From NCBI GenBank assembly GCA_020060565.1, contig JAGVAE010000002.1:85036-149035 (forward strand): a stretch of 64,000 nucleotides of DNA, given 5' to 3'. Both the position numbers and the translations under genes were made by a program. The DNA is from Candidatus Woesebacteria bacterium. GTDB taxonomy: Bacteria; Patescibacteriota; Microgenomatia; UBA8517. Of the stretch, positions 3,354 through 28,229 are shown in pieces; position 1 is the stretch's first letter, and every line of letters begins with the position of its first letter. The notes under the pieces are model-generated. The model made no database searches and was not told where the DNA came from. It saw only the letters and a list, made by a program, of their open reading frames with translations.

Positions 3354-3382
3354 TTGACATTATCACAGAATGTATATATCAT
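3354..3382 (+). promoter_or_regulatory. Sigma70-like promoter candidate: TTGACA, 17-nt spacer, TATCAT.
   Basis: TTGACA at 3354..3359 and TATCAT at 3377..3382. The likely start codon at 3388 suggests a near-leaderless transcript. Confidence 0.3.
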
Positions 3383-3387
3383 ATATT

Positions 3388-5869: not shown

Positions 5870-5874
5870 TGGGT

Positions 5875-6342: not shown

Positions 6343-6373
6343 TTTATTTTGAACTCGTTTAAAAATCTTCGTG

Positions 6374-6461
6374 CGGTGGGGGCGAGATTCGAACTCGCGT
6401 GGATGAAATTCACCCCCAAGGTTTTCGAGACCTGGCAGATAAACCGCTCCTGCACCCCACC
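6374..6461 (-). tRNA. tRNA-Ser (anticodon CGA), class II.
   Basis: Acceptor GGTGGGG/CCCCACC, anticodon arm CAGGT-CTCGAAA-ACCTT, long variable arm, T-arm GCGAG-TTCGAAT-CTCGC. 88 nt. Confidence 0.75.
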
Positions 6462-11731: not shown

Positions 11732-12415
11732 TCATTTCTTCTTGACTTGGGGCACCAAGTCATTAATTATCCTTACTACACGATCGGGTTTGGGAACTGC
11801 CAAGAAATCAAACTCAGAAACCTCGGATGCAGTTTGAATAAAAACATTTCCATAATTAAAAACTGTTCTAACAACCCCACCCATGCTGTAAGTAACATCT
11901 TGAATATTATCGAGTGTTGCGTCTGAAACTCTTTTATATATCAAATTATTAAAATCTACGTCTACCACTCTTTCGTTTGTAACAATATAAACATTGAAGT
12001 ACCAATTAAGAAAGTTCTCTAGAGCATAAGCCATTGTAAATAAGTACCAGGCCATTGTAATAACCAATTCAAAACCGTTTGGGATTGTATCAAAAACTCC
12101 AAAAGCCTTGGCAACTGACGGAACAAAAAACATGACAATCGCAATTAAAACCCATTTAACATTCACTATTACATGTTGTCTCAAAAGAAGAACAATTTTT
12201 TCATCATTTGAGCGTGATTCGAAATCAACATTGTTGGGATAATAACTAAATGTAGAAAGCGCTTGATGATTATGGCTTTCAAAAGAGTCCTTTTCTTCCT
12301 TATTCACCGAAATATTCTTTTTGGAATTTGAAACAAATACATCAGGCATTTCAAACTTATTATACCAGGTCGAATCAAAAATTGTGCTATTTTTTCTCGA
12401 TATTGAAGAAGGCAA
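11732..12415 (-). CDS. Bacterial PH-domain (YdbS/YdbT-like, DUF304) membrane protein.
   Basis: Two adjacent TM helices (WVLIAIVMFFVPSVAKAFGVF / ELVITMAWYLFTMAYAL) followed by a soluble beta-rich domain, as in bPH_2 proteins. Confidence 0.45.
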   Translation of the reverse strand: MPSSISRKNSTIFDSTWYNKFEMPDVFVSNSKKNISVNKEEKDSFESHNHQALSTFSYYPNNVDFESRSNDEKIVLLLRQHVIVNVKWVLIAIVMFFVPSVAKAFGVFDTIPNGFELVITMAWYLFTMAYALENFLNWYFNVYIVTNERVVDVDFNNLIYKRVSDATLDNIQDVTYSMGGVVRTVFNYGNVFIQTASEVSEFDFLAVPKPDRVVRIINDLVPQVKKK

Positions 12416-14090
12416 AACCTTTTTGTGGAATCATTAGATATCCGGGTGCGCGTAAATTAAATGCCTGTTTGAATTCAGCTCCTGTTAGCTTAATTGACCC
12501 GTTGACAGTAACTTCATTGGTTGTGCCGTCTCCCTGAGAAACTGAAACACTTGAAACCGAATTTACACCACCCTTTTGCCTAAGTTCCGAATAACTATAA
12601 GGGTTCCCACCCCAACAAGAGGTTGATGTTGAACTTACACGATCGTCCGTTCCACTCTTAAGAACAATTGCAGCATTAACAATATCTGTAAACTCCTCAT
12701 TGTTTAACCAGGGATTCGCTTTTCCACATGTTGCACCACTCGCGGTATAACCCTGTCTATACCAAGCTTTATAAACCCAAGGTGATCCCCCCGCATATTC
12801 ATATGTCTTTTCCAAAAATCCCGATCCGCCACTACCATTTGTTGTGTCCCACCCTGAAGTAGTCAAATACCCGCCGGATGTTGATGAATAATAAGTAACC
12901 ACATCTTCCAAAACCTGTCCGCGTGTTGACTGCACTGCTTGTTTCCATGCATCGGGTGGGTTGTCTGCTTTACTCTTTCTGAAAACTTGACACGCTTCCG
13001 TTACGCAGATTTGCTTTCCCTCCTTTTTGTATCTGTACGCATAACTTCTGGCTGCAATTGCTTGAGCCTTTAGGGCTTCTGGGTGCCAGGAAGACGGCAT
13101 TTCAGCAATCCCCATTAGATAATAACTTTCAAAATCCACATTTCCCACTCCCGCAACATTGATTGTTCCTCCAGTATCTTTGTTTACAGGGTCTTTTCCG
13201 TAGTAGGCTTTTAATATCTGATTGGTATTTTGTCCGCTTTGGGCCCTTCCGCGTGCTCCATACTGACTCATTCCTTTCCTGTGTGTATATCCCCCAAATG
13301 AGAATACAGCGAAAGAGCCAGCAGGGGCTGCCTCCTTAAATCCTTTTATAGAGGCTGTATAATCATCAGCCAAAGCACTGTCTCCGACACTGGCTATAAA
13401 ACTACCGCTTTTAGCATTCAATATTTCCTGTTGTTTGTTACTTAAAACCGCTAGGAAACTTTCTACTTTCCCCACTTCTCCCTCCAAAAACTTTGCATCT
13501 TCTGTAACTTTCTTTTGAAGAGATGCCAAAGAAACTTTATTTTTTTCTAAACTTTCTTTATCTGCCTTAAGTGTAGACAAATCTTCTCCATATTCTTCCA
13601 TTACCTTTCTGTCATCATCAGCTGCCATTTGCTGATATGAAACTTCACGGAATGCGTCCACCGCATTAGACATCAAAAATGGAGTTATTGGATCATACAA
13701 TCTTCTTCTTTTATAATCGTTCAATACCTTTTCATCAAAAATTTCACTGGTGTATGCCAGATCTTCCTCTCTTCCTTCTATTTCCTTCTCAATATTTTTA
13801 AGTTGTGTAGAGATTGAAGTAATTCTTTGATTAAGACTATCTATTTGTTTTTTAAGGTTTGCCAGTTCTGTTTTGTTTTTTTCTTGGGCTGGAGCATAGG
13901 CTGCTGCAATTCTGGGAAGAATTACAGTTATACATTCTTCCATCTCCCCACTACTCAAATCACTAACAGATTTGTTTAAACAATCACTCTCACTAACAGC
14001 CAAAGCTGATTTTGAAAAATAAAAAAAGGAAAATGTGGCAAGTAAAAAAACAATCGTTAAAAATTTAAAATTGAAAATTGAAAATTTCAT
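12387..14090 (-). CDS. SpoIID/LytB-domain protein (peptidoglycan remodelling) with an N-terminal signal peptide and coiled coil.
   Basis: HRKGMSQYGARGRA and YYLMGIAEMPSSWHPEALKAQAIAARSYAY match the SpoIID/LytB signature. Confidence 0.6.
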   Translation of the reverse strand: MKFSIFNFKFLTIVFLLATFSFFYFSKSALAVSESDCLNKSVSDLSSGEMEECITVILPRIAAAYAPAQEKNKTELANLKKQIDSLNQRITSISTQLKNIEKEIEGREEDLAYTSEIFDEKVLNDYKRRRLYDPITPFLMSNAVDAFREVSYQQMAADDDRKVMEEYGEDLSTLKADKESLEKNKVSLASLQKKVTEDAKFLEGEVGKVESFLAVLSNKQQEILNAKSGSFIASVGDSALADDYTASIKGFKEAAPAGSFAVFSFGGYTHRKGMSQYGARGRAQSGQNTNQILKAYYGKDPVNKDTGGTINVAGVGNVDFESYYLMGIAEMPSSWHPEALKAQAIAARSYAYRYKKEGKQICVTEACQVFRKSKADNPPDAWKQAVQSTRGQVLEDVVTYYSSTSGGYLTTSGWDTTNGSGGSGFLEKTYEYAGGSPWVYKAWYRQGYTASGATCGKANPWLNNEEFTDIVNAAIVLKSGTDDRVSSTSTSCWGGNPYSYSELRQKGGVNSVSSVSVSQGDGTTNEVTVNGSIKLTGAEFKQAFNLRAPGYLMIPQKGFAFFNIEKK

Positions 14091-14147: not shown

Positions 14148-14540
14148 ATGAAGAAGTTTATATTTAGTATTATTTTTGTTTCTGCATTTATATTTTTGAA
14201 TACTTTGATTTCGCCAAAGGTCTCTATGGCTGCTGATGTTCATGGGGGCTGTGGAGATACAGAGATTGATACAGCCATTGGCTGTGTTCCTGTATTGGGT
14301 GATGGAACAAGTGATTTTATGACTTTTATTCTTAGGTGGGCAATTGGTGTTGGGGGTGGAATTGCTTTTCTTTTGATTCTTTATGCAGGTTTTATGACAA
14401 TGACTTCAGCAGGTAATCCAGAAAGACTTAAGGCGGGGCAAGAATTATTAACAAGTGCCATCTCTGGTCTGATTCTTTTGATATTGTCCGTATTTGTTCT
14501 AAACTTTATAGGAATCAATATTTTAGGTATATTTACATAA
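14148..14540 (+). CDS. VirB2/TrbC-like propilin candidate, paralog 1; the only one with a classical signal peptide.
   Basis: 130 aa. Signal peptide (…PKVSMA), a Cys pair, then TM1, loop TSAGNPERLKAGQELLTSAISG and TM2. Confidence 0.5.
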   Translation: MKKFIFSIIFVSAFIFLNTLISPKVSMAADVHGGCGDTEIDTAIGCVPVLGDGTSDFMTFILRWAIGVGGGIAFLLILYAGFMTMTSAGNPERLKAGQELLTSAISGLILLILSVFVLNFIGINILGIFT

Positions 14541-14873
14541 ATGAAAATAGCATTAGAGAGTCCTTATAAAGGTATTAGCGTTCCTTCAAGTGGTGGAAAA
14601 ATAAATGTAAACGAAACTGATATTGGAGGTATTATTACTGGAGTTTTGCCATATATCTTTGGTGCAGCTGCAATTTTACTTTTAATTTATTTAGTTACAG
14701 CAGGTCTTTCCATGATGCTTTCTCGGGGAGAACCAAAAACAATGCAGGCAGCACAAGCAAAAATAACCAATGCTTTGATCGGATTTGTTATTGTATTTTT
14801 TGCGTTTTCTTTAGTACTTCTTGTTGGAAATATTCTTGGAGTTAATGTTTTTGAAGACATATTTAAAAAATAA
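14541..14873 (+). CDS. VirB2/TrbC-like propilin candidate, paralog 2.
   Basis: 110 aa. ~40-aa leader, then TM1, loop SRGEPKTMQAAQAKITNALIG and TM2. Abuts paralog 1 (TAAATG). Confidence 0.5.
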   Translation: MKIALESPYKGISVPSSGGKINVNETDIGGIITGVLPYIFGAAAILLLIYLVTAGLSMMLSRGEPKTMQAAQAKITNALIGFVIVFFAFSLVLLVGNILGVNVFEDIFKK

Positions 14874-15193
14874 TGAAAAATCTTGCATTAAATATTAAGG
14901 ATTCTTTTTTTGGTAATCAGGGAGCGTCTTCTTTTCAAACAATTACTGGGGTTTCTGATATTGTTTCTTTATTTCTCAAAATTTCTTTTGTCCTGGCAGG
15001 TTTAATTCTTCTTTTCTATTTTATCTTGGGTGGAATTGGAATGATTGGGAGTGCTGGAAAAAATGATCCAAAAGCGGCTGAACAGGCCAAGCAAACCATA
15101 ACATCGGCTGTTATTGGGTTTGTTGTTGTGTTTGTAGCCTATTGGATAGTAAAATTGATTGGAATATTGTTTAATATTCCAAATATTATTTAA
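14873..15193 (+). CDS. VirB2/TrbC-like propilin candidate, paralog 3.
   Basis: 106 aa. Loop SAGKNDPKAAEQAKQTITSAVIG between two TM helices. ATGA overlap with paralog 2. Confidence 0.5.
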   Translation: MKNLALNIKDSFFGNQGASSFQTITGVSDIVSLFLKISFVLAGLILLFYFILGGIGMIGSAGKNDPKAAEQAKQTITSAVIGFVVVFVAYWIVKLIGILFNIPNII

Positions 15194-15547
15194 ATGCAAA
15201 AACTACTCGCAGATAATGTCTTTGGCACAATTAAAGCACCAGATTCTGCATTTAAGGACAGTGCTACTCCCCAAGCAGCCATTGGAAACTTAATTCAGCT
15301 TGTAATCTGGATTCTTATAATTGGCGCTGGGATCTATGCATTGTTTAATTTGGTTTTGGCTGGCTATTCTTTTATGTCAGCAGGAGATGATAGTAAAAAA
15401 GTTAGTGGAGCCTGGGCTATGATTTATCAAACAATGATCGGCTTGGCTGTTGCTGCAGGATCCTTTGTGCTGGCAGCCATCTTTGGACAGTTGATATTTG
15501 GCAAATGGGATTTTATCCTTAACCCAACAATTCCAACATTACAATAA
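15194..15547 (+). CDS. VirB2/TrbC-like propilin candidate, paralog 4.
   Basis: 117 aa. Loop SAGDDSKKVSGAWAMIYQTMIG between two TM helices. Confidence 0.45.
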   Translation: MQKLLADNVFGTIKAPDSAFKDSATPQAAIGNLIQLVIWILIIGAGIYALFNLVLAGYSFMSAGDDSKKVSGAWAMIYQTMIGLAVAAGSFVLAAIFGQLIFGKWDFILNPTIPTLQ

Positions 15548-15548
15548 A

Positions 15549-15923
15549 ATGAATAATTTACTGACAGATATTAAATTGGCACCAGAGAGTGGTTTTAGGG
15601 GTTTTGGTCAGTTGGGACTTGAAGGTTTAAGTGAAGAAAGTGCGGGTACGACATTCAACACCTTTGTTTCAACTGCCATAGGTGTAATGACCATCATTGC
15701 TTTTGTGTGGTTTGTTTTTACACTTTTTGTTGGGGCTTACGGATTTATGACTGCAGGAGGGGATAAACAGGCTCTCGAGTCTGCAAAGAAAAAAATAACT
15801 ACAGGAATAATAGGTGTCGTTATTGTAATTGCCGCCATTTTCATATTCCAACTTGTGGGGTATATACTTGGAATACCAAATATTCTTAATCCTGGGGAAA
15901 TGATTAGACAAATCAGTCAATAA
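15549..15923 (+). CDS. VirB2/TrbC-like propilin candidate, paralog 5.
   Basis: Start at MNNLLTDIK, 1 nt after the stop of paralog 4. Loop TAGGDKQALESAKKKITTGIIG. Confidence 0.5.
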   Translation: MNNLLTDIKLAPESGFRGFGQLGLEGLSEESAGTTFNTFVSTAIGVMTIIAFVWFVFTLFVGAYGFMTAGGDKQALESAKKKITTGIIGVVIVIAAIFIFQLVGYILGIPNILNPGEMIRQISQ

Positions 15924-15924
15924 T

Positions 15925-16326
15925 ATGTTTATTACAAACCTTCTATTAGCACAGGGCGATATCCCTGAGGGGTGGAATGGCCCAGCAAAAGGATCTGAAA
16001 TAAAAAACCCCGCTTTAGGAAACACCTTAAACGGACTTCTTCAAGAGGGTGGTTCCGCGTTTTTTGGAACCCTAATACCAAATCTTATTGGAATCTGTTA
16101 TGTAATTGGGGTAGTTATCTTTCTTTTTATGCTTATTACAGGTGCTATTCAATGGATAAGCTCCGGTGGAGACAAACAAGCATTAGAGTCAGCAAGGAAT
16201 AAAATATCAAATGCTTTGGTAGGAATTGTAATTTTGTTTGCTGTGTTTGCAATTATAAATCTAATTGAAACGTTTTTTGGTATAAATATTATGACCCTTG
16301 ACATGGGGGCTTTAGTAATTCAATAA
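15925..16326 (+). CDS. VirB2/TrbC-like propilin candidate, paralog 6.
   Basis: 133 aa. Loop SSGGDKQALESARNKISNALVG between two TM helices. Confidence 0.5.
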   Translation: MFITNLLLAQGDIPEGWNGPAKGSEIKNPALGNTLNGLLQEGGSAFFGTLIPNLIGICYVIGVVIFLFMLITGAIQWISSGGDKQALESARNKISNALVGIVILFAVFAIINLIETFFGINIMTLDMGALVIQ

Positions 16327-16336
16327 TATAAATGTA

Positions 16337-16675
16337 ATGAATAATTTGCTTGCGGAAACAATTAATTTAAAGCCACAATCAGGTGATTTTGTGGGAATAT
16401 CTAATTTTACACTCCCCTCAATTATTTCTGCTCTTATAAAAGGAGCTATGGTTATTGCTGCTATTATCTTCTTCTTTATGTTGGTTATTGGAGGAATTAA
16501 ATGGATTGCTTCAGGTGGTGACAAAGCTCAAACAGAAGCAGCCAGGAATCAAATTACTGCAGCTCTTGTGGGTTTGGTAATAGTCTTTGCTGCTTGGGCA
16601 ATAGTTTCTCTTATAGCCACATTCTTTGGAGGGGTTAATATCTTTAATCTTACAATTCCTGAAATTGGTAATTAG
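16337..16675 (+). CDS. VirB2/TrbC-like propilin candidate, paralog 7.
   Basis: 112 aa. MNNLLAETI leader. Loop ASGGDKAQTEAARNQITAALVG. Confidence 0.5.
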   Translation: MNNLLAETINLKPQSGDFVGISNFTLPSIISALIKGAMVIAAIIFFFMLVIGGIKWIASGGDKAQTEAARNQITAALVGLVIVFAAWAIVSLIATFFGGVNIFNLTIPEIGN

Positions 16676-16722
16676 TTATCTTCTTGATCATGTTTATCTT
16701 CTAGATTAGAATTATCTTTAAT

Positions 16723-17007
16723 ATGGGTGATGGTCCTGCTAGGATTTCTGATTTGCAATTAGTTTTTGGGAATGTTGTCAAGATTGCCTTGGCGGCCGCA
16801 GGTGTGGTTCTTTTTGTTTTACTTATTATTGGAGGATTAAAATATATTACTTCAGGTGGGGATCCCAAAGCAGCCGAGAGTGCGCAAAAAACAATTACTT
16901 ATGCTATTGGAGGACTTCTTCTTATACTTGCTTCATTTCTAATCCTGGAGCTAATTAGGACAATTACAGGAGTAGATGTCACCAATTTTATTGTTACCCA
17001 ACCGTAA
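16723..17007 (+). CDS. VirB2/TrbC-like propilin candidate, paralog 8; shortest, minimal leader.
   Basis: 94 aa. Loop TSGGDPKAAESAQKTITYAIGG between two TM helices. Confidence 0.45.
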   Translation: MGDGPARISDLQLVFGNVVKIALAAAGVVLFVLLIIGGLKYITSGGDPKAAESAQKTITYAIGGLLLILASFLILELIRTITGVDVTNFIVTQP

Positions 17008-17011
17008 TTTA

Positions 17012-19501
17012 ATGTTCAAAAAACTTGCCCTCATGTTTTTTTTATTTCTAATATCTTTGGGGGCGTATCTAATTGTTTTATCTCCAACTAAGGCTGCTGA
17101 TGAAAAACCCTTTCCTAAGATTTGGCTTCCTTGTGATGAAGATAGAAATATTGAATTTCATTCCTTAAGACCTTATCAAGCCGCTCCATGTGGAGAAGCC
17201 AATAAAGCTCTCTATTGCAGTAATGACCTAATTTTTAACGAGTCTTTTGACATGGAAGGTAAAAAAGATTGCACTATGAAGTTAAGGGGCCCGGGTGAAA
17301 TAACTTTTACTTGTTATCCAGATCATCATGTTTACCCACACACACTCTATGTAAAACTTGACAATTCAGATTTTCCGATTATGGGTAACACTGAAGATGT
17401 TAAAAACAGTAAAAACTCTTCGGAAACATTGGATGATGCAGCAAAAGTTAATGAATATGTGAGCTGGTATCTAAGCGGTGTTAATACAAGGGCTGAGTAT
17501 GGAACTCCAACTGAAGATCAAGTTGTAAACTATTCAGGGCCAGTTCAAAAACTTTTACCAAGTATTATCGCTGATGCTCAAAGATCTACTGTAATAAAAA
17601 ATGTTCTTGACAATAAATCTACTAACCACAATCAAACAGTAGTGTGTGCAACAAAACCAGTTCAACTTCTTCCCTCCTGGCTAACCAACATTTTCGATCT
17701 TCCTGCTGTGGGAATTGGTACAGCCAAAGCCGTCCCTTGCTATGATGGTGGTGGTTCAATTTATAAGCTTAAAAATTGGGATCAATCTTTTATTGGTGTC
17801 GCAAAGGATCTAATTAAACCCTATCTAGATAAAATACTCTCTGTTAATTATGCCACATCTTTTATTAGTAGTGCCCTTGTTGATAGATGGAATAAAAAAA
17901 TTCCACCCCTTCCTTGGGATGATGGAACAGGAAAACCGTTTGAAACTAGTGATAAATATCAAAAAGCCTACAATGAATGGCGGGGAGATTTATGCGCTTT
18001 CTTACCAAATCCTTTTAGCAGTAAAGAATATTTGGCTTGTGTGAAAATTCCTGGTGTTACCAACAATGAATTTGCAGACCTTTTCCAATATGTTCCCCTT
18101 GCAGAGACTCCAGACAAAGCAGGGTCTGAAAGCATTATTGGGGTTTCTATTGAACCAGATGGAGGAACAAAGGTGAATGTAGTTAACTGGGGCAAAAAAG
18201 TGGATCCACCATTATTTTTTGCTCATACAGAAGAAGTAAAACAACTTTCCGAAACTTTAAATAAAACCTATATGCCCAAAGATGTTCAGAGTGTTCCTGT
18301 TCCCGAGTCTACCGAAAAAAATGTTTGCAGTGTAGTAAATGTGCGTGCAAATGCGGGGGATAATTTATTTCCAGGAGATGAAGATGAACTTCAGCTTCAA
18401 AATGTTGAGTACTACATTACAGAAGCCACCTGTCATGAAGTCTGGACCAGGAGGGAATGGGAAGATGAGTTTGGTAAAAAACATTTTGACGATAACCACA
18501 CTATCGAATGTCCCGCCGAAGTGACAATAACCATAAAAACAAACACAATGACGCCAAGTGCTAATGAAATTTTCTCAACCACAGTTGCCGATTCAATGAG
18601 TACCTTTAGAAAAATTTATCCAAAAGTTGAAGCTGGAGCTCCTGTCAGTTGTATTGCTGACATACCAACTGTTACTAATGTTGACTATGACCCCCTTATT
18701 AATAAAAGACCTGGAAGTCAAAGTCCTAACGAAGGAGCTTTATCTTTTAGGGTTGATAACAAACCATCAGATGGTGGAAATGCAACACCACAACTAACCT
18801 TTCCCCACATAGGAAGTGTCTATGAATACTTTTTAAAAGGAATCCAAACAGCCCTTCGTCCGCAGGGCTATGCAGATCCAAACCCAATAAGTGGAAATTT
18901 ATGTCAAACCACCAGTCAAGCAAATCTGGGAGATATCTGTGCGGTAGCAGATGCTTATGGTATTCCTTGTTGTCAATTAAAAGGTATCGCTGCACTTGAA
19001 ACAGGTAGTGGTGCTGGTGTTGGTAATGGATCGTGTAGTACTAAAAATGGAACATTTTCTTGTTGTAATGGTGGAATGTGTGGACCTTCACAGATTGCTT
19101 GTGGTCAATATGATGCATTTACTGGAAACGACAATATTGATATGTGCGATTCTGCAGGATCTGCAGAACTTTTGGCTCGTGCAATGCTTCTAAAATTGTG
19201 TCAGGCAGATGGAAAATGTAATTCGTATGACTGGAATACGTGGGGAAATTATGTAAAAGAAAATTACAGTGTTGGAGACGGTGACTATACAGCAGCTGCA
19301 TATTTTTACGGACTAGCCAATGACTGCACAGTTACTGCTTGTTCACAATACAGATGGGGAGCTGGAAAAAGTTATTGTGATGCTGTAAAAAGCTACTGTG
19401 AAACTGGTTCCATACTTACTTCCAATACATCTAAACAGTTTTGTGATAAATGTAATGAAGAAATTATAAGGGCTGGCCAAACCCCAATCAATTGTAATTA
19501 A
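17012..19501 (+). CDS. Large secreted protein with a C-terminal Cys-rich domain; a possible divergent lytic-transglycosylase-like region is speculative.
   Basis: Start at MFKKLALMFF…AADEK (signal peptide). ~830 aa with about 40 Cys concentrated in the last 250 aa. GIAALETGSGAG…AAAYFYG faintly recalls the SLT motifs ES…AAYNAG. Confidence 0.45.
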   Translation: MFKKLALMFFLFLISLGAYLIVLSPTKAADEKPFPKIWLPCDEDRNIEFHSLRPYQAAPCGEANKALYCSNDLIFNESFDMEGKKDCTMKLRGPGEITFTCYPDHHVYPHTLYVKLDNSDFPIMGNTEDVKNSKNSSETLDDAAKVNEYVSWYLSGVNTRAEYGTPTEDQVVNYSGPVQKLLPSIIADAQRSTVIKNVLDNKSTNHNQTVVCATKPVQLLPSWLTNIFDLPAVGIGTAKAVPCYDGGGSIYKLKNWDQSFIGVAKDLIKPYLDKILSVNYATSFISSALVDRWNKKIPPLPWDDGTGKPFETSDKYQKAYNEWRGDLCAFLPNPFSSKEYLACVKIPGVTNNEFADLFQYVPLAETPDKAGSESIIGVSIEPDGGTKVNVVNWGKKVDPPLFFAHTEEVKQLSETLNKTYMPKDVQSVPVPESTEKNVCSVVNVRANAGDNLFPGDEDELQLQNVEYYITEATCHEVWTRREWEDEFGKKHFDDNHTIECPAEVTITIKTNTMTPSANEIFSTTVADSMSTFRKIYPKVEAGAPVSCIADIPTVTNVDYDPLINKRPGSQSPNEGALSFRVDNKPSDGGNATPQLTFPHIGSVYEYFLKGIQTALRPQGYADPNPISGNLCQTTSQANLGDICAVADAYGIPCCQLKGIAALETGSGAGVGNGSCSTKNGTFSCCNGGMCGPSQIACGQYDAFTGNDNIDMCDSAGSAELLARAMLLKLCQADGKCNSYDWNTWGNYVKENYSVGDGDYTAAAYFYGLANDCTVTACSQYRWGAGKSYCDAVKSYCETGSILTSNTSKQFCDKCNEEIIRAGQTPINCN

Positions 19502-19545
19502 CAAAACCCCTTTGATTTTTTATCTCAAAGCTATAGAATAACTTA

Positions 19546-21150
19546 ATGTCTATCCTGCTCAAAAAAGTTCTGTTATCTTTTCTTTCCTTTTTTGTATTAT
19601 TCTTTTCTGTTGCTCCAAATTTTGCAATTGCCAAGGCCCAATCTACAACTTGGTACAATCAAGACTTCAAAACCTGGTTTGGAAAAGTATCGGACGAAGG
19701 TAACCCGCAAGAGATTTTTGGAGAACGCTATACATCTGCTCAAGTTGAATGGGTCATATATGGGGTATTTGCCTTCTTTATAAATCACGTTACTCCTCCA
19801 GGAACCGCAGGTACTTGTATTAATGGTGATATCACGGGTTGTATCGGTGCAATTAGTGCTTATTTCAGTTCAATATCCTATGAAGATAAAACGAACGAGA
19901 GCCTCGCACAACTTGTTTTTGCAGATCGCCCCCTTTCAGGAATTTCATATGTCAAACATACTATACAGAAATTTGGTTCAGTGCCTACTGCTCATGCACA
20001 AAGCCCTGGTTTTGGCTTCTCGGCACTTTCTGGTCCTATTCAGGATATGTGGAATGGTTTTAGAAATATAGCTTTTGGATTGTTTGTTCTTGCAACTGTT
20101 GCTTTTGCTTTTATGATTATGTTTCGAGTTAAAATTTCTCCACAAGTTGTTATTACTGTTCAATCTGCAATTCCAAAAATTGTTATTTCATTGATCCTCG
20201 TTACTTTTTCCTATGCAATCGCAGGTTTTTTAATTGATCTTATGTACTTGGTTATTGGTTTTATCAGTTTGATCATGGCCCCATTAATACCAAATGTATT
20301 ACTGTTAAATTCAGTCAATTACAATGCCACAGATTTATTTAAACTTCTAACGGTAGGCCAGACAATTGGGATTGGAACTGGTGGTTTCAATGGAATTTTA
20401 CTTCTTTTAGGAATGTATCTTACTCCTTTATTTTTAATCCTTCTCGTTTTCGCTGCACTTTTTCTTGCTATTGCATTTATACCAGGTGCTCAAGTGTTCG
20501 GGGTCGTATTAATGTTATTAACTCTAATTATTATGTTGGTTATTGTTGTATTGGCAATGTGGATGTCTATTAAAATAATGTGGGCACTTTTCAAAGCCTT
20601 TGCAAACATCGTCCTTCTTACCATCTTTGCTCCAATACAGCTTGTTGCGGGGGTAATTGTGCCCAATTTTGGCTTTGGTCAGTGGGTAAGAAGTTATTTA
20701 TCACACCTTGCGGTTTTTGTAGTAACGGGTGTTTTGTGGCTACTTTCTTACATTTTTATGTTGCATGCTTGGGCAGGTATTGGCGATGGCTCCTCTTTAA
20801 CCCTTGCTGGCTCAAACGTAAGTCCCTGGCCACCCCTTCTGAATGTTGGTGGTGGAACATTCTTTATTTTTACTGGGGTTAGTTTTGTGCTTTTTACAAT
20901 GATTCCAAAAGCAACCGAACTAGTACAATCACTTCTTGCAGGTAAGCCATTTGCGTACGGAAGTGCAATTGGTGAAGCCTTTGGACCAGTCACAAAAGGT
21001 GTGGGAATAGGAACTGGGTTTGGAGCAACTTACTTGTCAGAGTTGGGTGAAAGTCAGTTAAGATCAGGTAGCGAAGCAGTAAGAAAACAAGGTAAAAGTA
21101 ATTTAACGAAAGGTTCTGCCTTAAAAGTTATGCAGGGGTTTTTTAGATAA
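19546..21150 (+). CDS. VirB6/TrbL-like polytopic membrane protein (PrgH/TcpH-like).
   Basis: Signal peptide, a ~190-aa extracytoplasmic domain, at least 6 TM helices and a Gly-rich C-terminal tail. The topology and its position in the locus fit the VirB6 family. Confidence 0.45.
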   Translation: MSILLKKVLLSFLSFFVLFFSVAPNFAIAKAQSTTWYNQDFKTWFGKVSDEGNPQEIFGERYTSAQVEWVIYGVFAFFINHVTPPGTAGTCINGDITGCIGAISAYFSSISYEDKTNESLAQLVFADRPLSGISYVKHTIQKFGSVPTAHAQSPGFGFSALSGPIQDMWNGFRNIAFGLFVLATVAFAFMIMFRVKISPQVVITVQSAIPKIVISLILVTFSYAIAGFLIDLMYLVIGFISLIMAPLIPNVLLLNSVNYNATDLFKLLTVGQTIGIGTGGFNGILLLLGMYLTPLFLILLVFAALFLAIAFIPGAQVFGVVLMLLTLIIMLVIVVLAMWMSIKIMWALFKAFANIVLLTIFAPIQLVAGVIVPNFGFGQWVRSYLSHLAVFVVTGVLWLLSYIFMLHAWAGIGDGSSLTLAGSNVSPWPPLLNVGGGTFFIFTGVSFVLFTMIPKATELVQSLLAGKPFAYGSAIGEAFGPVTKGVGIGTGFGATYLSELGESQLRSGSEAVRKQGKSNLTKGSALKVMQGFFR

Positions 21151-21166: not shown

Positions 21167-23269
21167 TTAATCTGTAGAATTTACAGCCATTCGAATAAAA
21201 GCACCTATCTGATTATTTAATAAGGCTTTTTCTTCTTCTGTCTCAGATTTGGCAAAGTTAATACTTTTTGATGTATCAAGAATTTTCTTATCAAGATATC
21301 CCACACTCGCCGCCGTTTCAATTATTGCTTGTCGTTCTGTAGAAATTGTAGCCTGAACCGCTGACAAAAAAGCAATCGCCTTCCATTTGTTTTTTTCTTT
21401 TTTAACATATTTCTTTAATAAAGCATCTTCGGCTTCAATTCTCAGTTGATCATTGGGTAACTTGTTACCACCTGTCTGCATCTTGTCCATCAAAGTGTCT
21501 ATTTCAGTCAAATGATCACTAAACCACTTTTCATATTTCCCTTCTGTTATTATCCAATCTCTGCAAACTATATGGATTGATTTTTCAACCCCTTCCCAAT
21601 ACACAGGATCAAGACCATTTTCTCTATTTTTTCCCTTGGTTAATTCACCATTCATTGCCAAGTAGGCTCCCGTATCTTCCCTTAAGGAAAACAGTGCTCT
21701 TATTAAATAAGCTCTATATCCCCAATCTGCCGTATGGTCCTCATCTTTAAATATCTCCCCTAAAGTTTTACCTTCAACAAACAATTCCATTGCTGAACGT
21801 GTTTTACTCTTTGATTCGGGAAAGTTTCTGTCCCTAACGGGAACCGTTCTTAAAAAATCGACCATTATATGCTCTGGTGCAAAATTGGCCCAAGCAAAAG
21901 GACCTTCATAATACGAGTTCTGTCTGTTGTAGACAGTATTATCGCGAGGCCTTGTTAAATCGGTCATTGCATCCGACCATGGATAGTCTTCAGCATTTAC
22001 CTGAATCGCTCTATCACCATCCGTTTTTGTAGCTCTTGTACCATACATCGCAGCCAATCCAAAAAACCTAAATGTTTTTTCTGCAAAATTTACAGCAATT
22101 TGTGACTGCATTTTCATTGATGAATGGTTTTTAAATTTTCCCTCACTCATCAGGTCTTGAACCGCTTCAAGTGTGGCCTTAACACTTCCTCCATTGCTCG
22201 AATCTGCAAACTTATTAAATGCGGGAATCGAATCTAAAACCGCCTTATCTTCAGCAGTTAAACTTTCGTATGATTTACCATATAAATAAGCTGCCTTGTT
22301 GTATTCATTGGGAAGGGTTTTTAATTTTAATTTATATAACCACTCATTCTCCGTTGTTTCATTTACAAAAAGTTTTTTAAACCCCTTTCCATTTCTAAAC
22401 CAATCTAAATCGGTTTTCCATCTGGGATCAGATTGTAATGCCAAATACGTAAAGGCCCTTATACCAATGTCCACTTGTTCAGAAACACTCTTCCATTCTC
22501 TATCACCTTCTATAAAACCAGGCATTTCTCCGTATACTCTTGCAAAAAATTCGGGAGGCATATATTCAGGTAACTCTCCGTAAACCAGCTGAAAAATTTT
22601 CCCTGAAGGAGCAAGTTTTTTATAGAAAGCAAACCATTGATCAAAAAGTTTATCAACATCTTGAATTATCGTTAATGACTGTTCTATCCCTTTTTGTTTT
22701 TCTACCTGTTCCTGGGTTTTTTTTGAACCCCCGCTCAGTTCATTTAAGGCATCGCTTCCACCAGCTGCTCTTAGTGCTATTGATTCTCTAAGAGATTTAG
22801 CTGGCCATTCGTCGTTATAATTTACAATTCTATCCATAATGAAATATGTCCAGTATTTTCTTTCCTGTTCCGTGGGGGCTTTAGTTATTTTTTCTACTAT
22901 TCCTTCACCAAACATTCCAGACATTATCTGGGCTAATATTTCGGGGTTCATCTTAAAGTCACCAGCATCAGGAGATAAATCGACGGGATTAGTAACAGCT
23001 TTTACCGAATCAGGGGCTCCTTCCATATGAGGACCAACTTGTCCCAAGTGGCGCATATAATCTATTGAAGAACCCTGAGGGCTTGGTTGTTCTGGCGATG
23101 TTGGTCCATCAGACATATTCAAATTGTAGCACGGAGTAGGGTAAAACAACAAACCGTCCCATAGCTTGACTTTGTGGCTAAGTGAGTATACACTCGCGGA
23201 CAAGATGGAATTTGACAAAATTAAAACCGCTGTTGCAAATTTTTTTGACCGGAATGAAAAATTAGCCAT
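21167..23269 (-). CDS. Large hypothetical protein (700 aa) encoded antisense within the secretion locus.
   Basis: Long uninterrupted ORF with no recognisable motif. The N-terminus could be a signal peptide, or the start could be later at MSDGPTSP (23116). Confidence 0.4.
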   Translation of the reverse strand: MANFSFRSKKFATAVLILSNSILSASVYSLSHKVKLWDGLLFYPTPCYNLNMSDGPTSPEQPSPQGSSIDYMRHLGQVGPHMEGAPDSVKAVTNPVDLSPDAGDFKMNPEILAQIMSGMFGEGIVEKITKAPTEQERKYWTYFIMDRIVNYNDEWPAKSLRESIALRAAGGSDALNELSGGSKKTQEQVEKQKGIEQSLTIIQDVDKLFDQWFAFYKKLAPSGKIFQLVYGELPEYMPPEFFARVYGEMPGFIEGDREWKSVSEQVDIGIRAFTYLALQSDPRWKTDLDWFRNGKGFKKLFVNETTENEWLYKLKLKTLPNEYNKAAYLYGKSYESLTAEDKAVLDSIPAFNKFADSSNGGSVKATLEAVQDLMSEGKFKNHSSMKMQSQIAVNFAEKTFRFFGLAAMYGTRATKTDGDRAIQVNAEDYPWSDAMTDLTRPRDNTVYNRQNSYYEGPFAWANFAPEHIMVDFLRTVPVRDRNFPESKSKTRSAMELFVEGKTLGEIFKDEDHTADWGYRAYLIRALFSLREDTGAYLAMNGELTKGKNRENGLDPVYWEGVEKSIHIVCRDWIITEGKYEKWFSDHLTEIDTLMDKMQTGGNKLPNDQLRIEAEDALLKKYVKKEKNKWKAIAFLSAVQATISTERQAIIETAASVGYLDKKILDTSKSINFAKSETEEEKALLNNQIGAFIRMAVNSTD

Positions 23270-23885
23270 ACAACAAAGGATGGTGGATCAGACTTTTCAA
23301 AAAAGCCGTTCGAGTGAAGAAAAGCTAGAACTAGATCAATGTCTATACGCAGAGAAAAACATTCCGATTATAAAAGCGAGACTTGACGAGCTTATTAAAA
23401 ATATCAACACTTCTGTTTTCGACAATAAGGGCTCTGTAATACCATGGAAAGTAACTATTGGTAAAAGCCCTCGTTCACATAATGAGGGAGGGAACTCTAT
23501 ATATGAATATGGGGAAGGATACGGTATTGTTGGTGGCCACGATGTTTTTGATGGTTGGTTTCTCACCAGAGAGCAGGACACTGAACTCAAAGTTGGCAGC
23601 CTATTCCAATTACAAATCAAGTTAATTTTTCCACTTACCGAAACAAACACTGCAGGTCAAATTAATAGACACTCCAATAAATATTTTTCCATTTTTGGTT
23701 TTATGTCTGGAGATTTGTTCCACAATCACGAAAGCGGAACTTTTTACAGGAGCTATAGCAGCCTTTCAATTCATAGAAATTTCTACTTAGATAATCCAAA
23801 CGAACTCGTAGCGGAATTTGGTAACAAATTAAAAGAGGAATTGTTAGGACTTAACGATTTTCAGAACCATTCTCCAAAAAATTAA
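23205..23885 (+). CDS. Hypothetical protein.
   Basis: ORF 23166..23885 with internal start MEFDKIK. Would overlap the 5' end of the divergent 700-aa ORF unless that gene starts later. Confidence 0.25.
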   Translation: MEFDKIKTAVANFFDRNEKLAIQQRMVDQTFQKSRSSEEKLELDQCLYAEKNIPIIKARLDELIKNINTSVFDNKGSVIPWKVTIGKSPRSHNEGGNSIYEYGEGYGIVGGHDVFDGWFLTREQDTELKVGSLFQLQIKLIFPLTETNTAGQINRHSNKYFSIFGFMSGDLFHNHESGTFYRSYSSLSIHRNFYLDNPNELVAEFGNKLKEELLGLNDFQNHSPKN

Positions 23886-24633: not shown

Positions 24634-25674
24634 ATGGAACAACACGCAATACCACAAAACGTAAGTTCATATCAATTTAAGTTGGTTGGGGATATGACTC
24701 TTAAGCAGTTTTTTCAACTTGCTGGAGGAATTTTAGTTGGAGTAATTTTTTATTCTGCTCCCTTACTTGGAATTATTAAATGGCCTTTGGCAATTCTTTC
24801 TGTTCTTTTAGGGGTTGGGCTTGCTTTTCTCCCTCTTGAGGAGCGTCCCTTGGAAAAGTGGATTTTTGCTTTTTTTCGTGCAATATATGCTCCCACCCTT
24901 TTTAATTGGAAAAAGGCTTTATCTCCTCCTAAATTTTTTCAGGATGAACCAGCGGGTTCCACTCCCGAACAAGATGCTGCTCTTAAGGGTTATCTGACAA
25001 CAACCAATCAAGCCTCTGGTGCTTCTGCAAATTTGGATAAAGCTGAAATTGGTTTTTTTTCAAAGCTTGCTGGACTTTTAACAGGAACTATCAGTGTTAT
25101 TCCTTCTGCCAAACCTGCTACTCCAACTGAGGCTACTTCTCAAAAGCCAGTTGAGTTGAAAGTACCAGAAAATGCTCCAGTTAGAATTCAAACAGGTGCA
25201 TCACATTTAGTGGTTGAGGAAAAACCAAAGATTGCTACTGTCCAAAACCAAGTCACTGTTAATGCTGTTGCCCCAATTGTAGCGGGAGATGAAATGATTT
25301 CTACAAAACAGGCAATTTTTTCAGTTGATGCAGCCCCACCCAATCCCCCAACTATACCCAATGTGGTTGTGGGACAAGTGGTTGATCAAGACAGAAAAAT
25401 TATTGAGGGGGCAATAATGGAAATACGAGACTCAATGGGAAGACCAATAAGAGCCTTAAGGAGTAATCGTGTGGGACATTTTCTTACAGTCACACAGCTT
25501 GATAATGGACACTACGAAATAATTACAGATAAAGATGGTTATGAGTTTGTTGCGGTTTCTTTTGATGCAAATGGTGCCTTGATTCCTCCAATTTTAGTTC
25601 AAGGAAAAAGATTGGGACCAGTGGTTGAGGATATTCCCGTTGGAATTGTTAAACCAGCCTATTCAATAAATTAA
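24634..25674 (+). CDS. PrgI/VirB3-like membrane protein with a long C-terminal extension.
   Basis: The N-terminus IPQNVSSYQFKLVGDMTLKQFFQLAGGILVGVIFY plus two TM helices matches the PrgI-family pattern, and the gene sits directly upstream of VirB4. Confidence 0.45.
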   Translation: MEQHAIPQNVSSYQFKLVGDMTLKQFFQLAGGILVGVIFYSAPLLGIIKWPLAILSVLLGVGLAFLPLEERPLEKWIFAFFRAIYAPTLFNWKKALSPPKFFQDEPAGSTPEQDAALKGYLTTTNQASGASANLDKAEIGFFSKLAGLLTGTISVIPSAKPATPTEATSQKPVELKVPENAPVRIQTGASHLVVEEKPKIATVQNQVTVNAVAPIVAGDEMISTKQAIFSVDAAPPNPPTIPNVVVGQVVDQDRKIIEGAIMEIRDSMGRPIRALRSNRVGHFLTVTQLDNGHYEIITDKDGYEFVAVSFDANGALIPPILVQGKRLGPVVEDIPVGIVKPAYSIN

Positions 25675-25675
25675 A

Positions 25676-26392
25676 ATGAAACCAAAACTTAACAGTTTAA
25701 ATATTCCCAAGATTCCGTATTTAAGTGTTCCTGACAAACCTATTGTTTCAACCTCTCAGAACCACTTACCAATTGCGGATGTTACCAATGATGTTGTTCT
25801 TTATAAAGATGGTGGGGCTGCTCTTGTTATGGAATCTACATCACTAAACTTTGGCCTTTTAAGTGAAAAGGAGCAAGGAGCCGTCATTGCGGCCTATGCT
25901 GCAATGATTAATTCTCTTTCTTTTTCGATACAAATATTAGTTCGAACTCAAAGGAAAGATATAAGTTCATACATAAGTTATATTGATGAACAAGCTAAAA
26001 AACTAACACATCCCCTTCTTCAAAAATTAATGGCTGAGTATAAAGGATTTATCTTAGATTCTGTTAAAAAGAAAAACGTTTTAGGAAAAAGATTTTTTGT
26101 AATTCTCTATCTTTCCCCACTTGAACTTGGAGTTGGAAAATCATTGGCCGTTGTCACAAAACGAGGAGTTACACTTCCTTTTTCCAAATCCTATGTTATT
26201 AAAAAAACAAAAATAACACTTTATCCAAGACGGGATCATCTTATAAGACAAGCTGGCAGACTTGGAATTAAATTTAGACAACTTACCACCAACGAGCTTA
26301 TTGATCTTTTCTATACCGTCTATAATCCTGAACATCCAGCAGTTAAAAAAGAACCTGAAGTAATATTAGAAAGGAGAGAGTCCAGTGGATAA
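25676..26392 (+). CDS. VirB4/TrbE N-terminal domain encoded as a separate ORF.
   Basis: IADVTNDVVLYKDGGAALVMESTSLNFGLLSEKEQGAVIAAYAAMINSLSFSIQILVRTQRKD…YISYI and RFFVILYLSP follow the CagE_TrbE_VirB N-terminal consensus. The stop overlaps the next ORF by 8 nt. Confidence 0.55.
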   Translation: MKPKLNSLNIPKIPYLSVPDKPIVSTSQNHLPIADVTNDVVLYKDGGAALVMESTSLNFGLLSEKEQGAVIAAYAAMINSLSFSIQILVRTQRKDISSYISYIDEQAKKLTHPLLQKLMAEYKGFILDSVKKKNVLGKRFFVILYLSPLELGVGKSLAVVTKRGVTLPFSKSYVIKKTKITLYPRRDHLIRQAGRLGIKFRQLTTNELIDLFYTVYNPEHPAVKKEPEVILERRESSG

Positions 26393-28229
26393 CAATACAA
26401 AACCAATAGTCCAAGCACCAACCCAGCCATCTAGCCATCCAACCATTCAACCTTCACCTCAGTCTGAGGTAAAACCCAAGATTGTAAGTCCTGTGGCGGC
26501 TGTTGATGGGGGAGCTAGTGTAATTGATGTCATAGCTCCCCAAGCGATTGAGCAAGATTTTGATTATTTTAAAATTAATGATGTTTATTTCAGAACCATC
26601 TTTGTAGGGGGCTATCCAAGGTTTGTTGCTCCTGGTTGGTTGGAACCCGTTGTTAATTTTGACTCCTCCTTGGATATTTCTTTCTATGTTTATCCAGTTG
26701 ATGGAAAAACAGTACTTGATGATCTAAGACACAAGATTGCAGAGATGGAGGCGGAAATCTCAACAGACATAGAACGTGGAAGAATAGTGGATCCTTCCAC
26801 CCAAGCCAAGCTTGAAGATGCAAGGAGCCTTCAGGAACAACTAGTTAAAGGAATTGAAAGATTTTATGAGTTTAGTTTCTATATAACCATTCCCGCCAAC
26901 AATCTTGAGGAATTAAACCATGTTACAAAACAAATTGAATCTCAACTTGGATCTCTTTTAATTGTCAGTAAGCATGCACTTCTTGATCAGGAGTCGGGTT
27001 TTCTTTCAACTGCTCCTTTTGGAATGGATAGGTTAAATATTACAAGAAACATGGATACGACTTCTGTTGCTACAACTTTTCCTCTAACTTCAACCGAACT
27101 TTCCAGTGACCGCGGTGTTCTTTACGGAATAAACTCTCAAAATGAGTCTTTTATTATTTTTGATAGATTTTCTTTGGAGAATGCCAACATGACAATTTTT
27201 GCCACCTCTGGTGCAGGTAAATCTTATTTTGTAAAACTGGAGGCAGTTCGCTCCCTCATGATTGGAACTGAGGTAATAATAATTGATCCTGAAAGTGAAT
27301 ATAAACCATTAACACAAGCAGTTGGGGGCGAATATATTTCATTTTCTTTCAACTCTCCTGCCAAAATCAATCCTTTTGATTTGGCACAAATTAGAGAAGA
27401 AGGAGAAAACCAATTGGGTCAAAAGATTCTTTCCCTTCACTCTCTCATGAAAGTTATCATGGGTGCAATCACTCCCACCCAAGAAGCCCTTCTTGATCGC
27501 GCCCTTATCATGACCTATCGCAATAAAGGAATAACAATGGACCCAGATACACAGTCCAAAGAACCCCCACTAATGGAAGATCTTTATAAAACCCTAATTG
27601 GTATGGAGGTTCCTGATGCTTTAGACCTTGCTGCTCGGCTTGAGAAATTTGTAAGAGGGTCATTTGTGGGAATATTTGATAAACAAACAAATATAAATAT
27701 TAACAATCCTTTTACTGTTTTTTCTATTAAAGATTTACAGGACGCACTACGTCCCATCGCCATGTTTACAATTCTTGATTACATTTGGACAAGGGTTAAA
27801 AAAGACCTCAAGAAACGCATCTTAATCGCCGAAGAGGCCTGGCAAATGATGAAGTACCCCGATACCTCAGCCTTTTTGTGGAGTGTTGTTAAAAGGGCAC
27901 GTAAATATTATTTGGGCTTAACTACAATTACTCAGGATGTTGAAGACTTTTTAAGCCAGGATATTGGAAAAGCCATTGTTACAAATAGTTCCATGCAAGT
28001 ACTTCTTAAACAATCTCCTGCTGCAATTGATAAGATTGCGGAAGTTTTTTATTTGAGTCAGGGGGAAAAACAATTATTACTTGCTGCAAATGTTGGAGAG
28101 GGAATTTTCTTTGCAGGACCACACCATGCTCCAATTAGAGTTATTGCTAGTGAGGATGAAAATAAATTGATCACAACCAAACCACAAGAAATGATGATGA
28201 TAAATCCAAATGCATATGAGGCAAAATAA
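26385..28229 (+). CDS. VirB4/TraC-family T4SS ATPase (C-terminal ATPase part), GTG start.
   Basis: Walker A FATSGAGKSYFVK and Walker B RILIAEEAWQMM. The middle region DYFKINDVYFRTIFVGGYPRFVAPGWL is typical of VirB4. Confidence 0.8.
   Translation: MDNNTKPIVQAPTQPSSHPTIQPSPQSEVKPKIVSPVAAVDGGASVIDVIAPQAIEQDFDYFKINDVYFRTIFVGGYPRFVAPGWLEPVVNFDSSLDISFYVYPVDGKTVLDDLRHKIAEMEAEISTDIERGRIVDPSTQAKLEDARSLQEQLVKGIERFYEFSFYITIPANNLEELNHVTKQIESQLGSLLIVSKHALLDQESGFLSTAPFGMDRLNITRNMDTTSVATTFPLTSTELSSDRGVLYGINSQNESFIIFDRFSLENANMTIFATSGAGKSYFVKLEAVRSLMIGTEVIIIDPESEYKPLTQAVGGEYISFSFNSPAKINPFDLAQIREEGENQLGQKILSLHSLMKVIMGAITPTQEALLDRALIMTYRNKGITMDPDTQSKEPPLMEDLYKTLIGMEVPDALDLAARLEKFVRGSFVGIFDKQTNININNPFTVFSIKDLQDALRPIAMFTILDYIWTRVKKDLKKRILIAEEAWQMMKYPDTSAFLWSVVKRARKYYLGLTTITQDVEDFLSQDIGKAIVTNSSMQVLLKQSPAAIDKIAEVFYLSQGEKQLLLAANVGEGIFFAGPHHAPIRVIASEDENKLITTKPQEMMMINPNAYEAK

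Follow-up and report, generated by a model that had tools for sequence, protein, structure and literature searches.

A candidate wall-breaching enzyme with an exchangeable lysozyme-like domain in the type IV secretion and pilus locus of Microgenomatia

Introduction

Which enzyme, if any, opens the cell wall for the type IV secretion system (T4SS) and VirB2 pilus of Microgenomatia? No T4SS before that of Patescibacteria had been shown to be essential for the growth of its carrier, and the loci of this system include pilins, which is unusual for monoderms (PMC10633639; PMC12857230). A 2025 survey reported that VirB1 homologues are not associated with virB4 in most classes of Patescibacteria, with poor association outside Paceibacteria; it proposed that other glycosidases could take the VirB1 role or that the VirB2 pilus may not need a VirB1-type hydrolase, and found VirB6 homologues to be scarce in Microgenomatia (PMC12102498). 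Here, we consider this question for a gene in a 64,000-nucleotide stretch of contig JAGVAE010000002.1 (assembly GCA_020060565.1, Candidatus Woesebacteria bacterium), referred to below as the window. The gene, at 17012..19501 on the plus strand, encodes a Cys-rich protein that, according to a first-pass annotation made from the sequence alone, could be a wall-breaching VirB1/PrgK analogue or else an adhesin or tip protein of the apparatus.

Our analysis supports the first of these guesses. The C-terminal domain has a predicted lysozyme fold, its putative catalytic Glu is present in 119/119 tails examined, and the gene has a T4SS context in 37 of 39 related loci. We consider it probable that the protein is an exported, wall-breaching enzyme of the VirB1/PrgK type in the chromosomal T4SS/VirB2-pilus locus of Microgenomatia, a role that we infer from its fold and synteny. 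The first-pass annotation was sound on the open reading frame (ORF), signal sequence, motifs and genomic context, and inaccurate on the number and spacing of the cysteines and the distance between the motifs, as detailed below.

Results

Start site and overall architecture

A single long ORF on the plus strand, 16976..19501, encodes 841 amino acids, or 829 when read from the ATG at 17012 to 19501 (stop codon included). Residue numbers follow the 841-residue frame unless 829-residue numbering is stated. The start at 17012 is the likelier one because M13, which corresponds to 17012, is where many homologues start in the alignment, and because the NCBI protein has 829 residues; the database copies of the exact protein disagree, the JGI copy having 841. 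An AGGAG precedes the ATG at 16976 by 3 nt, and use of this ATG would create a 32-nt overlap with the last pilin gene, while the ATG at 17012 is without a Shine-Dalgarno sequence. The N-terminus appears typical of a cleaved Sec signal peptide or a signal anchor: MFKK is followed by a 19-residue hydrophobic stretch, LALMFFLFLISLGAYLIVL, modelled as a helix (3-22 of the 829-residue model), and by TKA and AD on the two sides of the putative cleavage site, in agreement with the ORF and signal sequence originally annotated. The protein and its parts are located as follows:

17012..19501, plus strand: coding sequence of the 829-residue protein (ORF listing and homologue starts; alternative upstream ATG at 16976)
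17012..17095, plus strand: predicted N-terminal export signal, residues 13-40 (MFKK, hydrophobic LALMFFLFLISLGAYLIVL, TKA followed by AD; read from sequence)
17096..18799, plus strand: conserved N-terminal module, residues ~41-608, 13 Cys (mixed alpha/beta, very long beta-strands)
18800..18871, plus strand: junction motif FPHIGSVYEYFLKGIQTALRPQGY, residues 609-632 (the stretch conserved best across the family; 5' recombination boundary)
18926..19498, plus strand: C-terminal GH23/SLT-like domain of predicted lysozyme fold, tail class A, residues 651-841, 18 Cys
18998..19000, plus strand: codon of E675, predicted catalytic Glu (motif IPCCQLKGIAALE-T, compared to IPQSYAMAIARQE-S in Slt70)
19283..19312, plus strand: DYTAAAYFYG, residues 770-779, counterpart of SLT motif III (AYNAG), aligned to 'A.CnYyg' of class D

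A predicted, highly diverged lysozyme-like fold for the C-terminal domain

The C-terminal domains ("tails") of homologues fall into several classes, of which the domain described here belongs to class A. We used two alignments: A1, comprising this C-terminal region and its 20 closest tails (21 sequences), and A2, comprising 52 sequences from all tail classes. In a separate model of class A, residues 651-841 have a predicted local distance difference test score (pLDDT) of ~80-95 and adopt a predicted lysozyme-like alpha+beta fold of the kind that characterizes the GH23/SLT superfamily. E675 is at the C-terminal end of model helix 60-71, with T676 next and then a beta-hairpin, as in lysozymes. 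The first-pass annotation had named a model lacking a lysozyme/SLT-like fold as the result that would speak against an enzyme; the class-A model is lysozyme-like, and the hypothesis survived.

Conservation points to the same residue. E675 is invariant in 21/21 class-A sequences (E70 in A1) and in 52/52 sequences of all classes (E663 in A2), and a Glu occupies the same helix context in 119/119 tails from six classes when each class is aligned alone. Within class A, G98 of motif II and Y171, F172 and G174 of motif III (A1 numbering) are invariant as well, and the G-P of motif II is kept. The context of the Glu matches that of Slt70 position by position (IPCCQLKGIAALET compared to IPQSYAMAIARQES), with I-P-x6-I-A-x2-E-[ST] in both. 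The two motifs that had been noticed as weak echoes of SLT motifs, GIAALET at residue 670 and DYTAAAYFYG at 770, are both present, separated by 100 residues instead of the ~130 originally given. The echo itself held up: in alignments with Slt70/MltC-F and with goose lysozyme, the Glu of GIAALET, present in 119/119 tails, falls on their catalytic Glu, and AAAYFYG takes the AYNAG position via class D, which serves as a bridge.

This bridge is provided by profile alignments. Class A aligned to class D with 98.5% probability over 167 columns, placing ET on ES, CGPaQI on GVaQI and AAaYFYG on A.CnYyg. Class D aligned to a profile of Escherichia coli Slt70/MltC/D/E/F with 90.7% probability (E 1.2e-6), placing ES on ES and GVaQ on GLMQ, and class B aligned to the same profile with 86% probability. 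In a search of the PDB with the whole-family profile, the best matches were two goose-type lysozymes (E 0.026 and 0.32), with the family Glu on Glu73 in the 'IISRES' of goose egg-white lysozyme (GEWL). The best class-D relative, P0090, scored 19.0 bits on Pfam SLT (PF01464), for which the cut-off is 21.3, and SLT_2 (PF13406) matched weakly in 2-3 members; the protein itself had no match to either model even at E<=10. From these results, we conclude that the C-terminal domain belongs to the GH23/SLT lysozyme-like superfamily, outside current family models.

Like Slt70, MltC, MltD, MltE and MltF (SLT PF01464, GH23), the domain has a Glu at a helix end followed by Ser or Thr, and the motif order I-II-III. 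Unlike these enzymes, it has CGPSQI for GLMQ and AAYFYG for AYNAG at the aligned positions, with Leu-Met of motif II and Asn-Ala of motif III replaced, it is below the Pfam threshold, and it contains a ~13-residue Cys-rich insertion between motifs I and II. The goose-type lysozymes (GEWL, cod, salmon), the top PDB matches of the family profile, resemble the protein in containing disulfides and in being secreted, as it is predicted to be. Such g-type enzymes are hydrolases whose beta-hairpin carries further Asp residues. In this they differ from class A, where no acidic position is conserved in the hairpin that follows the Glu, between E70 and G98 (A1). Because class A is without a conserved second carboxylate, a lytic-transglycosylase reaction is likelier than hydrolysis. 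Class B resembles goose lysozyme in having an Asp, nearly invariant, 13 residues after the Glu; it may be a hydrolase, and the tail classes may differ in reaction type.

The other tail classes are connected to lysozymes to different degrees. Profiles of class B and class C found no lysozyme match among PDB sequences, and profiles of classes C, E and F had no significant match to class A or to the E. coli lytic transglycosylases, so that the helix-Glu motif is the only tie between C, E and F and the lysozymes. A homologue search with the C-terminal domain alone as the query returned only three fragments, and the domain was therefore not found in other architectures.

The gene has a fixed position in a T4SS locus

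In the window, the gene lies between a pilin array and the PrgI and VirB4 genes and is thus, by its position, a member of a T4SS cluster. The T4SS-like locus of the first-pass annotation is borne out by T4SS_pilin matches upstream and by PrgI and a VirB4-type ATPase downstream. Its main features besides the gene are:

12387..14090, minus strand: coiled-coil and SpoIID/LytB-domain protein, 567 amino acids (Pfam SpoIID 9.5e-20; TIGR02669 7e-30; in 37/39 loci)
14148..17007, plus strand: array of eight small VirB2-type pilin-like genes (PF18895 T4SS_pilin matches in 7/8, with six reaching or exceeding the Pfam cut-off)
19546..21150, plus strand: polytopic membrane protein, 534 amino acids, directly downstream of the coding sequence (homologue after the gene in 37/39 loci)
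24634..28229, plus strand: T4SS core, comprising PrgI (VirB3-like), a TraC-like/TrsD-like ORF and a VirB4-type P-loop ATPase (Pfam PrgI, P-loop_TraG, DUF87, AAA_10; NCBIfam TrsD/VirB4; synteny)

We found more than 400 homologues, and those with names come from the Patescibacteria group, Microgenomates and Woesebacteria. An exhaustive profile search yielded 793 clusters at 50% identity, of which 466 scored below 1e-30. Among species-representative genomes, a scan identified 59 loci, which carry these same Patescibacteria, Microgenomates or Woesebacteria labels or come from bins titled 'uncultured Gammaproteobacteria'. The odd titles occur at L007, L008, L010, L018, L020, L021 and others (many 'uncultured Gammaproteobacteria bacterium', one 'Alphaproteobacteria' and one 'Ignavibacteria') and are most likely placeholder or wrong taxon labels.

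Synteny was counted in 39 loci of at least 15 kb, each from a different species. In 37 of these, the order is the SpoIID-domain gene (minus strand), the pilin array, the gene and the polytopic protein, with PrgI, the TraC-like ORF and VirB4 found 6-9 kb beyond where the flank is long enough. The remaining two (L054 and L056, with the gene at 8001) have no adjoining pilin array, and the gene is ~3-6 kb downstream of PrgI/TraC-like/VirB4. With its position retained in 37/39 loci, the gene is a fixed component of the locus type.

The C-terminal domain is an exchangeable cassette

Comparison of the tails of 120 homologues separated them into at least six classes not linked by BLAST, with 67, 18 (class A), 14, 11, 7 and 2 members. 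Tail class does not follow the rest of the protein. The closest core, that of P0002, is 89% identical, yet P0002 has a class-B tail; the core of P0003 is only 64% identical and its tail is 95% identical. The nearest neighbour by core similarity has the same tail class in only 66/120 cases.

The same mosaic is visible in the DNA. Compared to the P0002 locus, identity is ~83% up to ~18,820, the sequences are unalignable (44-53%) across 18,973-19,422, and identity is 69-77% in the next gene. Compared to the P0003 locus, identity is 53-65% in the core and 84-90% across 18,823-19,572. The switch in identity thus occurs around 18,820-18,970, and its 5' boundary coincides with the junction motif at 18800-18871, in which G601, Y606, F607, L608, I611, Q612, L615, R616, P617 and G619 (829-residue numbering) are invariant in 119 sequences. 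These comparisons show computationally that the C-terminal domain is an exchangeable cassette with a sharp breakpoint at an invariant junction motif.

The combination of a conserved body, a junction motif and a variable C-terminal domain is the architecture of polymorphic toxins such as CdiA-CT and Rhs-CT, whose C-terminal domains also recombine at an invariant motif; the likeness is one of architecture, and we claim no homology. Unlike the diverse domains of those toxins, the cassettes for which there is evidence (A, B and D) are all of lysozyme type. We found no immunity-like gene that co-varies with the cassette, the downstream polytopic gene remaining 69-77% identical in DNA across the cassette switch, and no orphan cassettes or paralogues in the window. 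We therefore rejected membership in the polymorphic toxins.

Some homologues have further domains. P0155 and P0252 carry a NAGPA phosphodiester glycosidase extension (N-terminal, ~100-275; E 1e-25 to 1e-32), and P0241 and P0256 have weak matches to GDSL-like lipase/acylhydrolase or BNR-like domains. Judging from these family matches, the added domains are predicted to be enzymes acting on envelope glycans.

Cysteine content suggests disulfide bonds

The protein contains 32 Cys (3.8%), ~6 times the 0.62% background of 25 other proteins in the window, and Cys enrichment as such, which the first-pass annotation had noticed, is well above chance. Its details were different from those annotated. 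Instead of ~40 Cys in a C-terminal domain of ~250 amino acids, there are 19 in the last 201 amino acids (~9.5% of the C-terminal domain), and of the CxC, CC and CxxC spacings that had been listed, CC occurs twice, CxxC once and CxC not at all. The N-terminal region, which had been described as Cys-poor, has 13 Cys in 630 amino acids, or 2.1%, a value that is also above the window background.

High Cys content is a family trait, with a median of 28 Cys per homologue. The Cys count is even in 169/210 full-length homologues (binomial p = 6e-20), as would be expected for cysteines that pair in disulfides. This parity is a signature of obligatory disulfide pairing outside the cytoplasm, to which the protein is presumably exported. 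As many as nine disulfides are predicted for the class-A C-terminal domain. In two relatives only (L004 521-1407; L014 ~5600-6450), genes for a DsbB homologue and for an exported, thioredoxin-like protein bearing a CSHC motif lie ~9 kb upstream of the locus; the window has no counterpart of this pair.

A large N-terminal module has a confidently modelled fold

More than half of the protein belongs to a conserved module of its own, which, like the exchange of the C-terminal cassette, lies beyond what the first-pass annotation saw. In a full-length model based on 119 sequences, residues ~40-620 have pLDDT values mostly above 90 and comprise a Cys-rich beta region, a helical region, several beta-strands of 15-25 residues and a terminal helix that bears FPHIGSVYEYFLKGIQTALRPQGY. 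We found no solved structural relative and no sequence relative of this ~580-residue module. Mixing of tail classes in the alignment leaves the C-terminal part of the full-length model at low quality (pLDDT 30-60), and for this reason only the separate class-A model was used for the C-terminal domain. The possibility that the module is a second known hydrolase (CHAP, M23 or amidase) was rejected, as neither its sequence nor its fold matched; in Pfam searches, no CHAP/NlpC-P60 or LytM domain was detected in the protein or in 52 homologues at E<=1.

Other genes in the locus and the window

The array of eight pilin-like genes is retained in most related loci; in the window, the ORF at 15194-15547 is the one of the eight without a Pfam match. 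The 534-residue polytopic protein downstream had no family match in any library searched and may be a VirB6/PrgH analogue, that is, a candidate for the 'missing' VirB6 of Microgenomatia. The SpoIID/LytB protein, which has an N-terminal coiled coil and is divergent to the pilin array, is a candidate for a second peptidoglycan-cleaving enzyme of the T4SS/pilus locus, judging from its domain match. The locus is chromosomal and close to the origin, given that dnaN and dnaA lie further downstream at 31.6-34.3 kb; Microgenomatia T4SS loci have been described as chromosomal and origin-proximal (PMC12102498).

VirB4 is seemingly split (25676-28229, plus strand) into a 238-residue TraC/TrsD-like ORF and a 614-residue P-loop ORF that overlap by 8 nt, and the two-gene arrangement was called likewise in the relatives L002 and L004. 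Searches of Pfam, NCBIfam and PHROGs returned nothing for two proteins in the locus, of 700 amino acids (21167-23269, minus strand) and 913 amino acids (28232-30973, plus strand). At equivalent positions, L002 and L004 encode proteins of similar size, but sequence conservation is poor, with tblastn matches in only 1-2 of the 39 loci. A short ORF inside the locus (23844-24341, minus strand) matches the AbiEii nucleotidyltransferase toxin in its N-terminal part only (2.3e-6) and may be the remnant of a toxin-antitoxin system.

Elsewhere in the window, a MerR-type helix-turn-helix gene followed by a large serine recombinase (Resolvase, Recombinase and Zn_ribbon_recom; 3370-5305, plus strand) may mark the edge of an integrated element. 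Wall-associated proteins are encoded at 47113-48870 (VanW and PG_binding_4, minus strand), 54207-54956 (Peptidase_M23, minus strand) and 56400-57293 (PEGA and SH3_3, plus strand), indicating that the organism encodes several peptidoglycan-directed proteins outside the T4SS locus.

Discussion

How could such a protein serve the T4SS? In the mechanism that we favour, the protein would be exported, folded oxidatively and stabilized by disulfides as two modules, of which the ~580-residue N-terminal one would most likely dock the enzyme to the pilus or channel. Docking would restrict opening of the wall to the places where the apparatus crosses it, a task that falls to VirB1 in the T4SSs of diderms and to PrgK/TraG in those of monoderms. 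E675 would act as the general acid that cleaves the beta-1,4 bond between N-acetylmuramic acid (MurNAc) and N-acetylglucosamine (GlcNAc) in peptidoglycan (MurNAc-beta-1,4-GlcNAc), with 1,6-anhydro-MurNAc as the product if the enzyme is a lytic transglycosylase.

Both types of known T4SS hydrolase resemble the protein in part. VirB1 of Agrobacterium and other diderm T4SSs is likewise a lysozyme/SLT-fold enzyme, exported by Sec and encoded in the T4SS cluster beside the VirB2 pilin gene or genes, and presumably makes a local opening in the wall for the apparatus; it also has a second, non-enzymatic part, VirB1*, that promotes pilus formation, and in the present protein, too, a large non-enzymatic module is fused to the enzyme domain (PMC12857230). 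VirB1 differs in its size (~240 amino acids) and in having an N-terminal SLT domain that standard profiles detect. The domain described here is C-terminal, is missed by Pfam, NCBIfam and PHROGs, contains 18 Cys, follows the ~580-residue module and is exchanged as a cassette. The monoderm hydrolases PrgK (pCF10), TraG (pIP501) and the TcpG/CD419 type are, like this protein, large and multidomain, combining an SLT-type domain with a membrane or export segment at the N-terminus, and hydrolases of the PrgK/TraG/TcpG type are essential or important for channel assembly (PMC12102498; PMC12857230). In them, SLT is paired with CHAP/NlpC-P60 or LytM, in place of which this protein has an unrecognised module, and their systems are without pilins, of which this locus has eight pilin-like genes. 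The protein is thus of a known kind, a T4SS-associated peptidoglycan-cleaving enzyme; what is unusual is the cryptic, disulfide-rich GH23 domain, its fusion to a large module of unknown fold and its cassette-like exchange.

Several results weigh against this interpretation. The SpoIID-type enzyme in the same locus could be the true VirB1 analogue, and enzymatic activity, export and association with the apparatus are all properties that we infer. The whole protein was unmatched in Pfam, NCBIfam, PHROGs and PDB sequences, as was the class-A profile in PDB sequences. Aligned directly to the E. coli lytic-transglycosylase profile, class A gave no significant match (1.6%, E 0.03), even though E675 still fell on the catalytic Glu, and alignment of the profile to Slt70 as a single sequence with hhalign was meaningless, so that the five-enzyme E. 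coli profile was used instead. SLT motif II is altered, and the fold evidence is a prediction from only 21 sequences. The first-pass annotation had proposed looking for a Dsb-type oxidoreductase, and none (DsbA, DsbB or VKOR type) is encoded in the 64-kb window. Finally, rapid cassette exchange is unexpected for an enzyme that cuts only its own, conserved wall.

One interpretation of this last point, which we regard as possible though doubtful, is that the protein acts on the host. The VirB2 pilus would carry the N-terminal module along its length or at its tip, or the T4SS would secrete it, and the lysozyme-type cassette would act as an exchangeable 'warhead' that cuts the wall of the host (prey), with cassette turnover driven by host peptidoglycan chemotypes or host lysozyme inhibitors. 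The presence of at least six tail classes on one conserved scaffold is consistent with this, as are the mosaic identities of P0002 and P0003, the sharing of tail class with the nearest neighbour in only 66/120 cases, and the sharp DNA breakpoints at the junction motif with identity returning in the downstream gene. The NAGPA, GDSL-like and BNR-like domains of some members would likewise act on glycans, and the separate SpoIID-type enzyme could serve the producer's own wall. Patescibacteria are obligate epibionts whose T4SS is essential for growth on the host (PMC10633639; PMC12857230). On the other hand, no immunity-like gene varies with the cassette, the window contains no orphan cassettes or paralogues, and the gene is present as one copy per locus in a fixed position, as is typical of a structural component. 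Departure of the protein from the producer's surface has no support in the present results, and the fold model is for class A only, with C, E and F tied to lysozymes by just the helix-Glu motif. As a tentative proposal, then, the protein may be, instead of a housekeeping VirB1, a pilus- or T4SS-borne weapon or door-opener directed at the host, in which a module of new fold carries a disulfide-hardened lysozyme cassette. Recombination at the invariant YEYFLKGIQTALRP-GY junction would then let cassette turnover follow the wall chemistry of the host or its lysozyme inhibitors. If true, the protein would represent a polymorphic, 'lysozyme-tipped' component of the T4SS, and no such class has yet been described.

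Alternatively, the lysozyme-like domain could be inactive and bind glycan strands, anchoring the N-terminal module as an adhesin or pilus-associated part. The degenerate motif II (CGPSQI), the failure of any library model to score the domain and a very high disulfide content that resembles binding or scaffold domains are compatible with this role. We consider it improbable because the Glu is universally conserved: classes with almost no other feature in common have it in 119/119 tails, which would be difficult to account for if the domain were not catalytic. Class A also conserves Y/F/G in motif III and G-P in motif II. A housekeeping autolysin for growth or division, placed beside T4SS genes near the replication origin by chance, would suit a chromosomal locus near dnaA/dnaN among housekeeping genes and a window with other wall enzymes (M23 peptidase, VanW/PG_binding_4, SpoIID) scattered through it, but we think this very improbable on the grounds of synteny, since the position is kept in 37/39 species-level loci that are otherwise 25-50% identical, with the two exceptions still beside VirB4, and since the taxon-specific source names are all Microgenomates/Woesebacteria, a class reported to be rich in pilin arrays (PMC12102498; compared by class, not per genome).

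The favoured reading, in which the protein opens the wall for the apparatus, bears on the apparent lack of VirB1 in this group. The poor association of VirB1 homologues with virB4 outside Paceibacteria in the 2025 survey suggests that the family escapes the VirB1, TrsG and CD419 profiles used there for T4SS typing (PMC12102498). A wall-cutting function is thus probably present in the T4SS/pilus loci of Microgenomatia and Woesebacteria in the form of a cryptic GH23 domain encoded beside the pilin array, where it is invisible to sequence profiles. E675 provides a concrete predicted catalytic residue, and the confidently modelled module of ~580 amino acids, which has no solved relative, is a core part of the locus. 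Because the enzyme domain is an exchangeable cassette, the question of whether the producer's own wall or the wall of its host is cut is directly testable, and the answer could link tail class to host range in these uncultivated epibionts.

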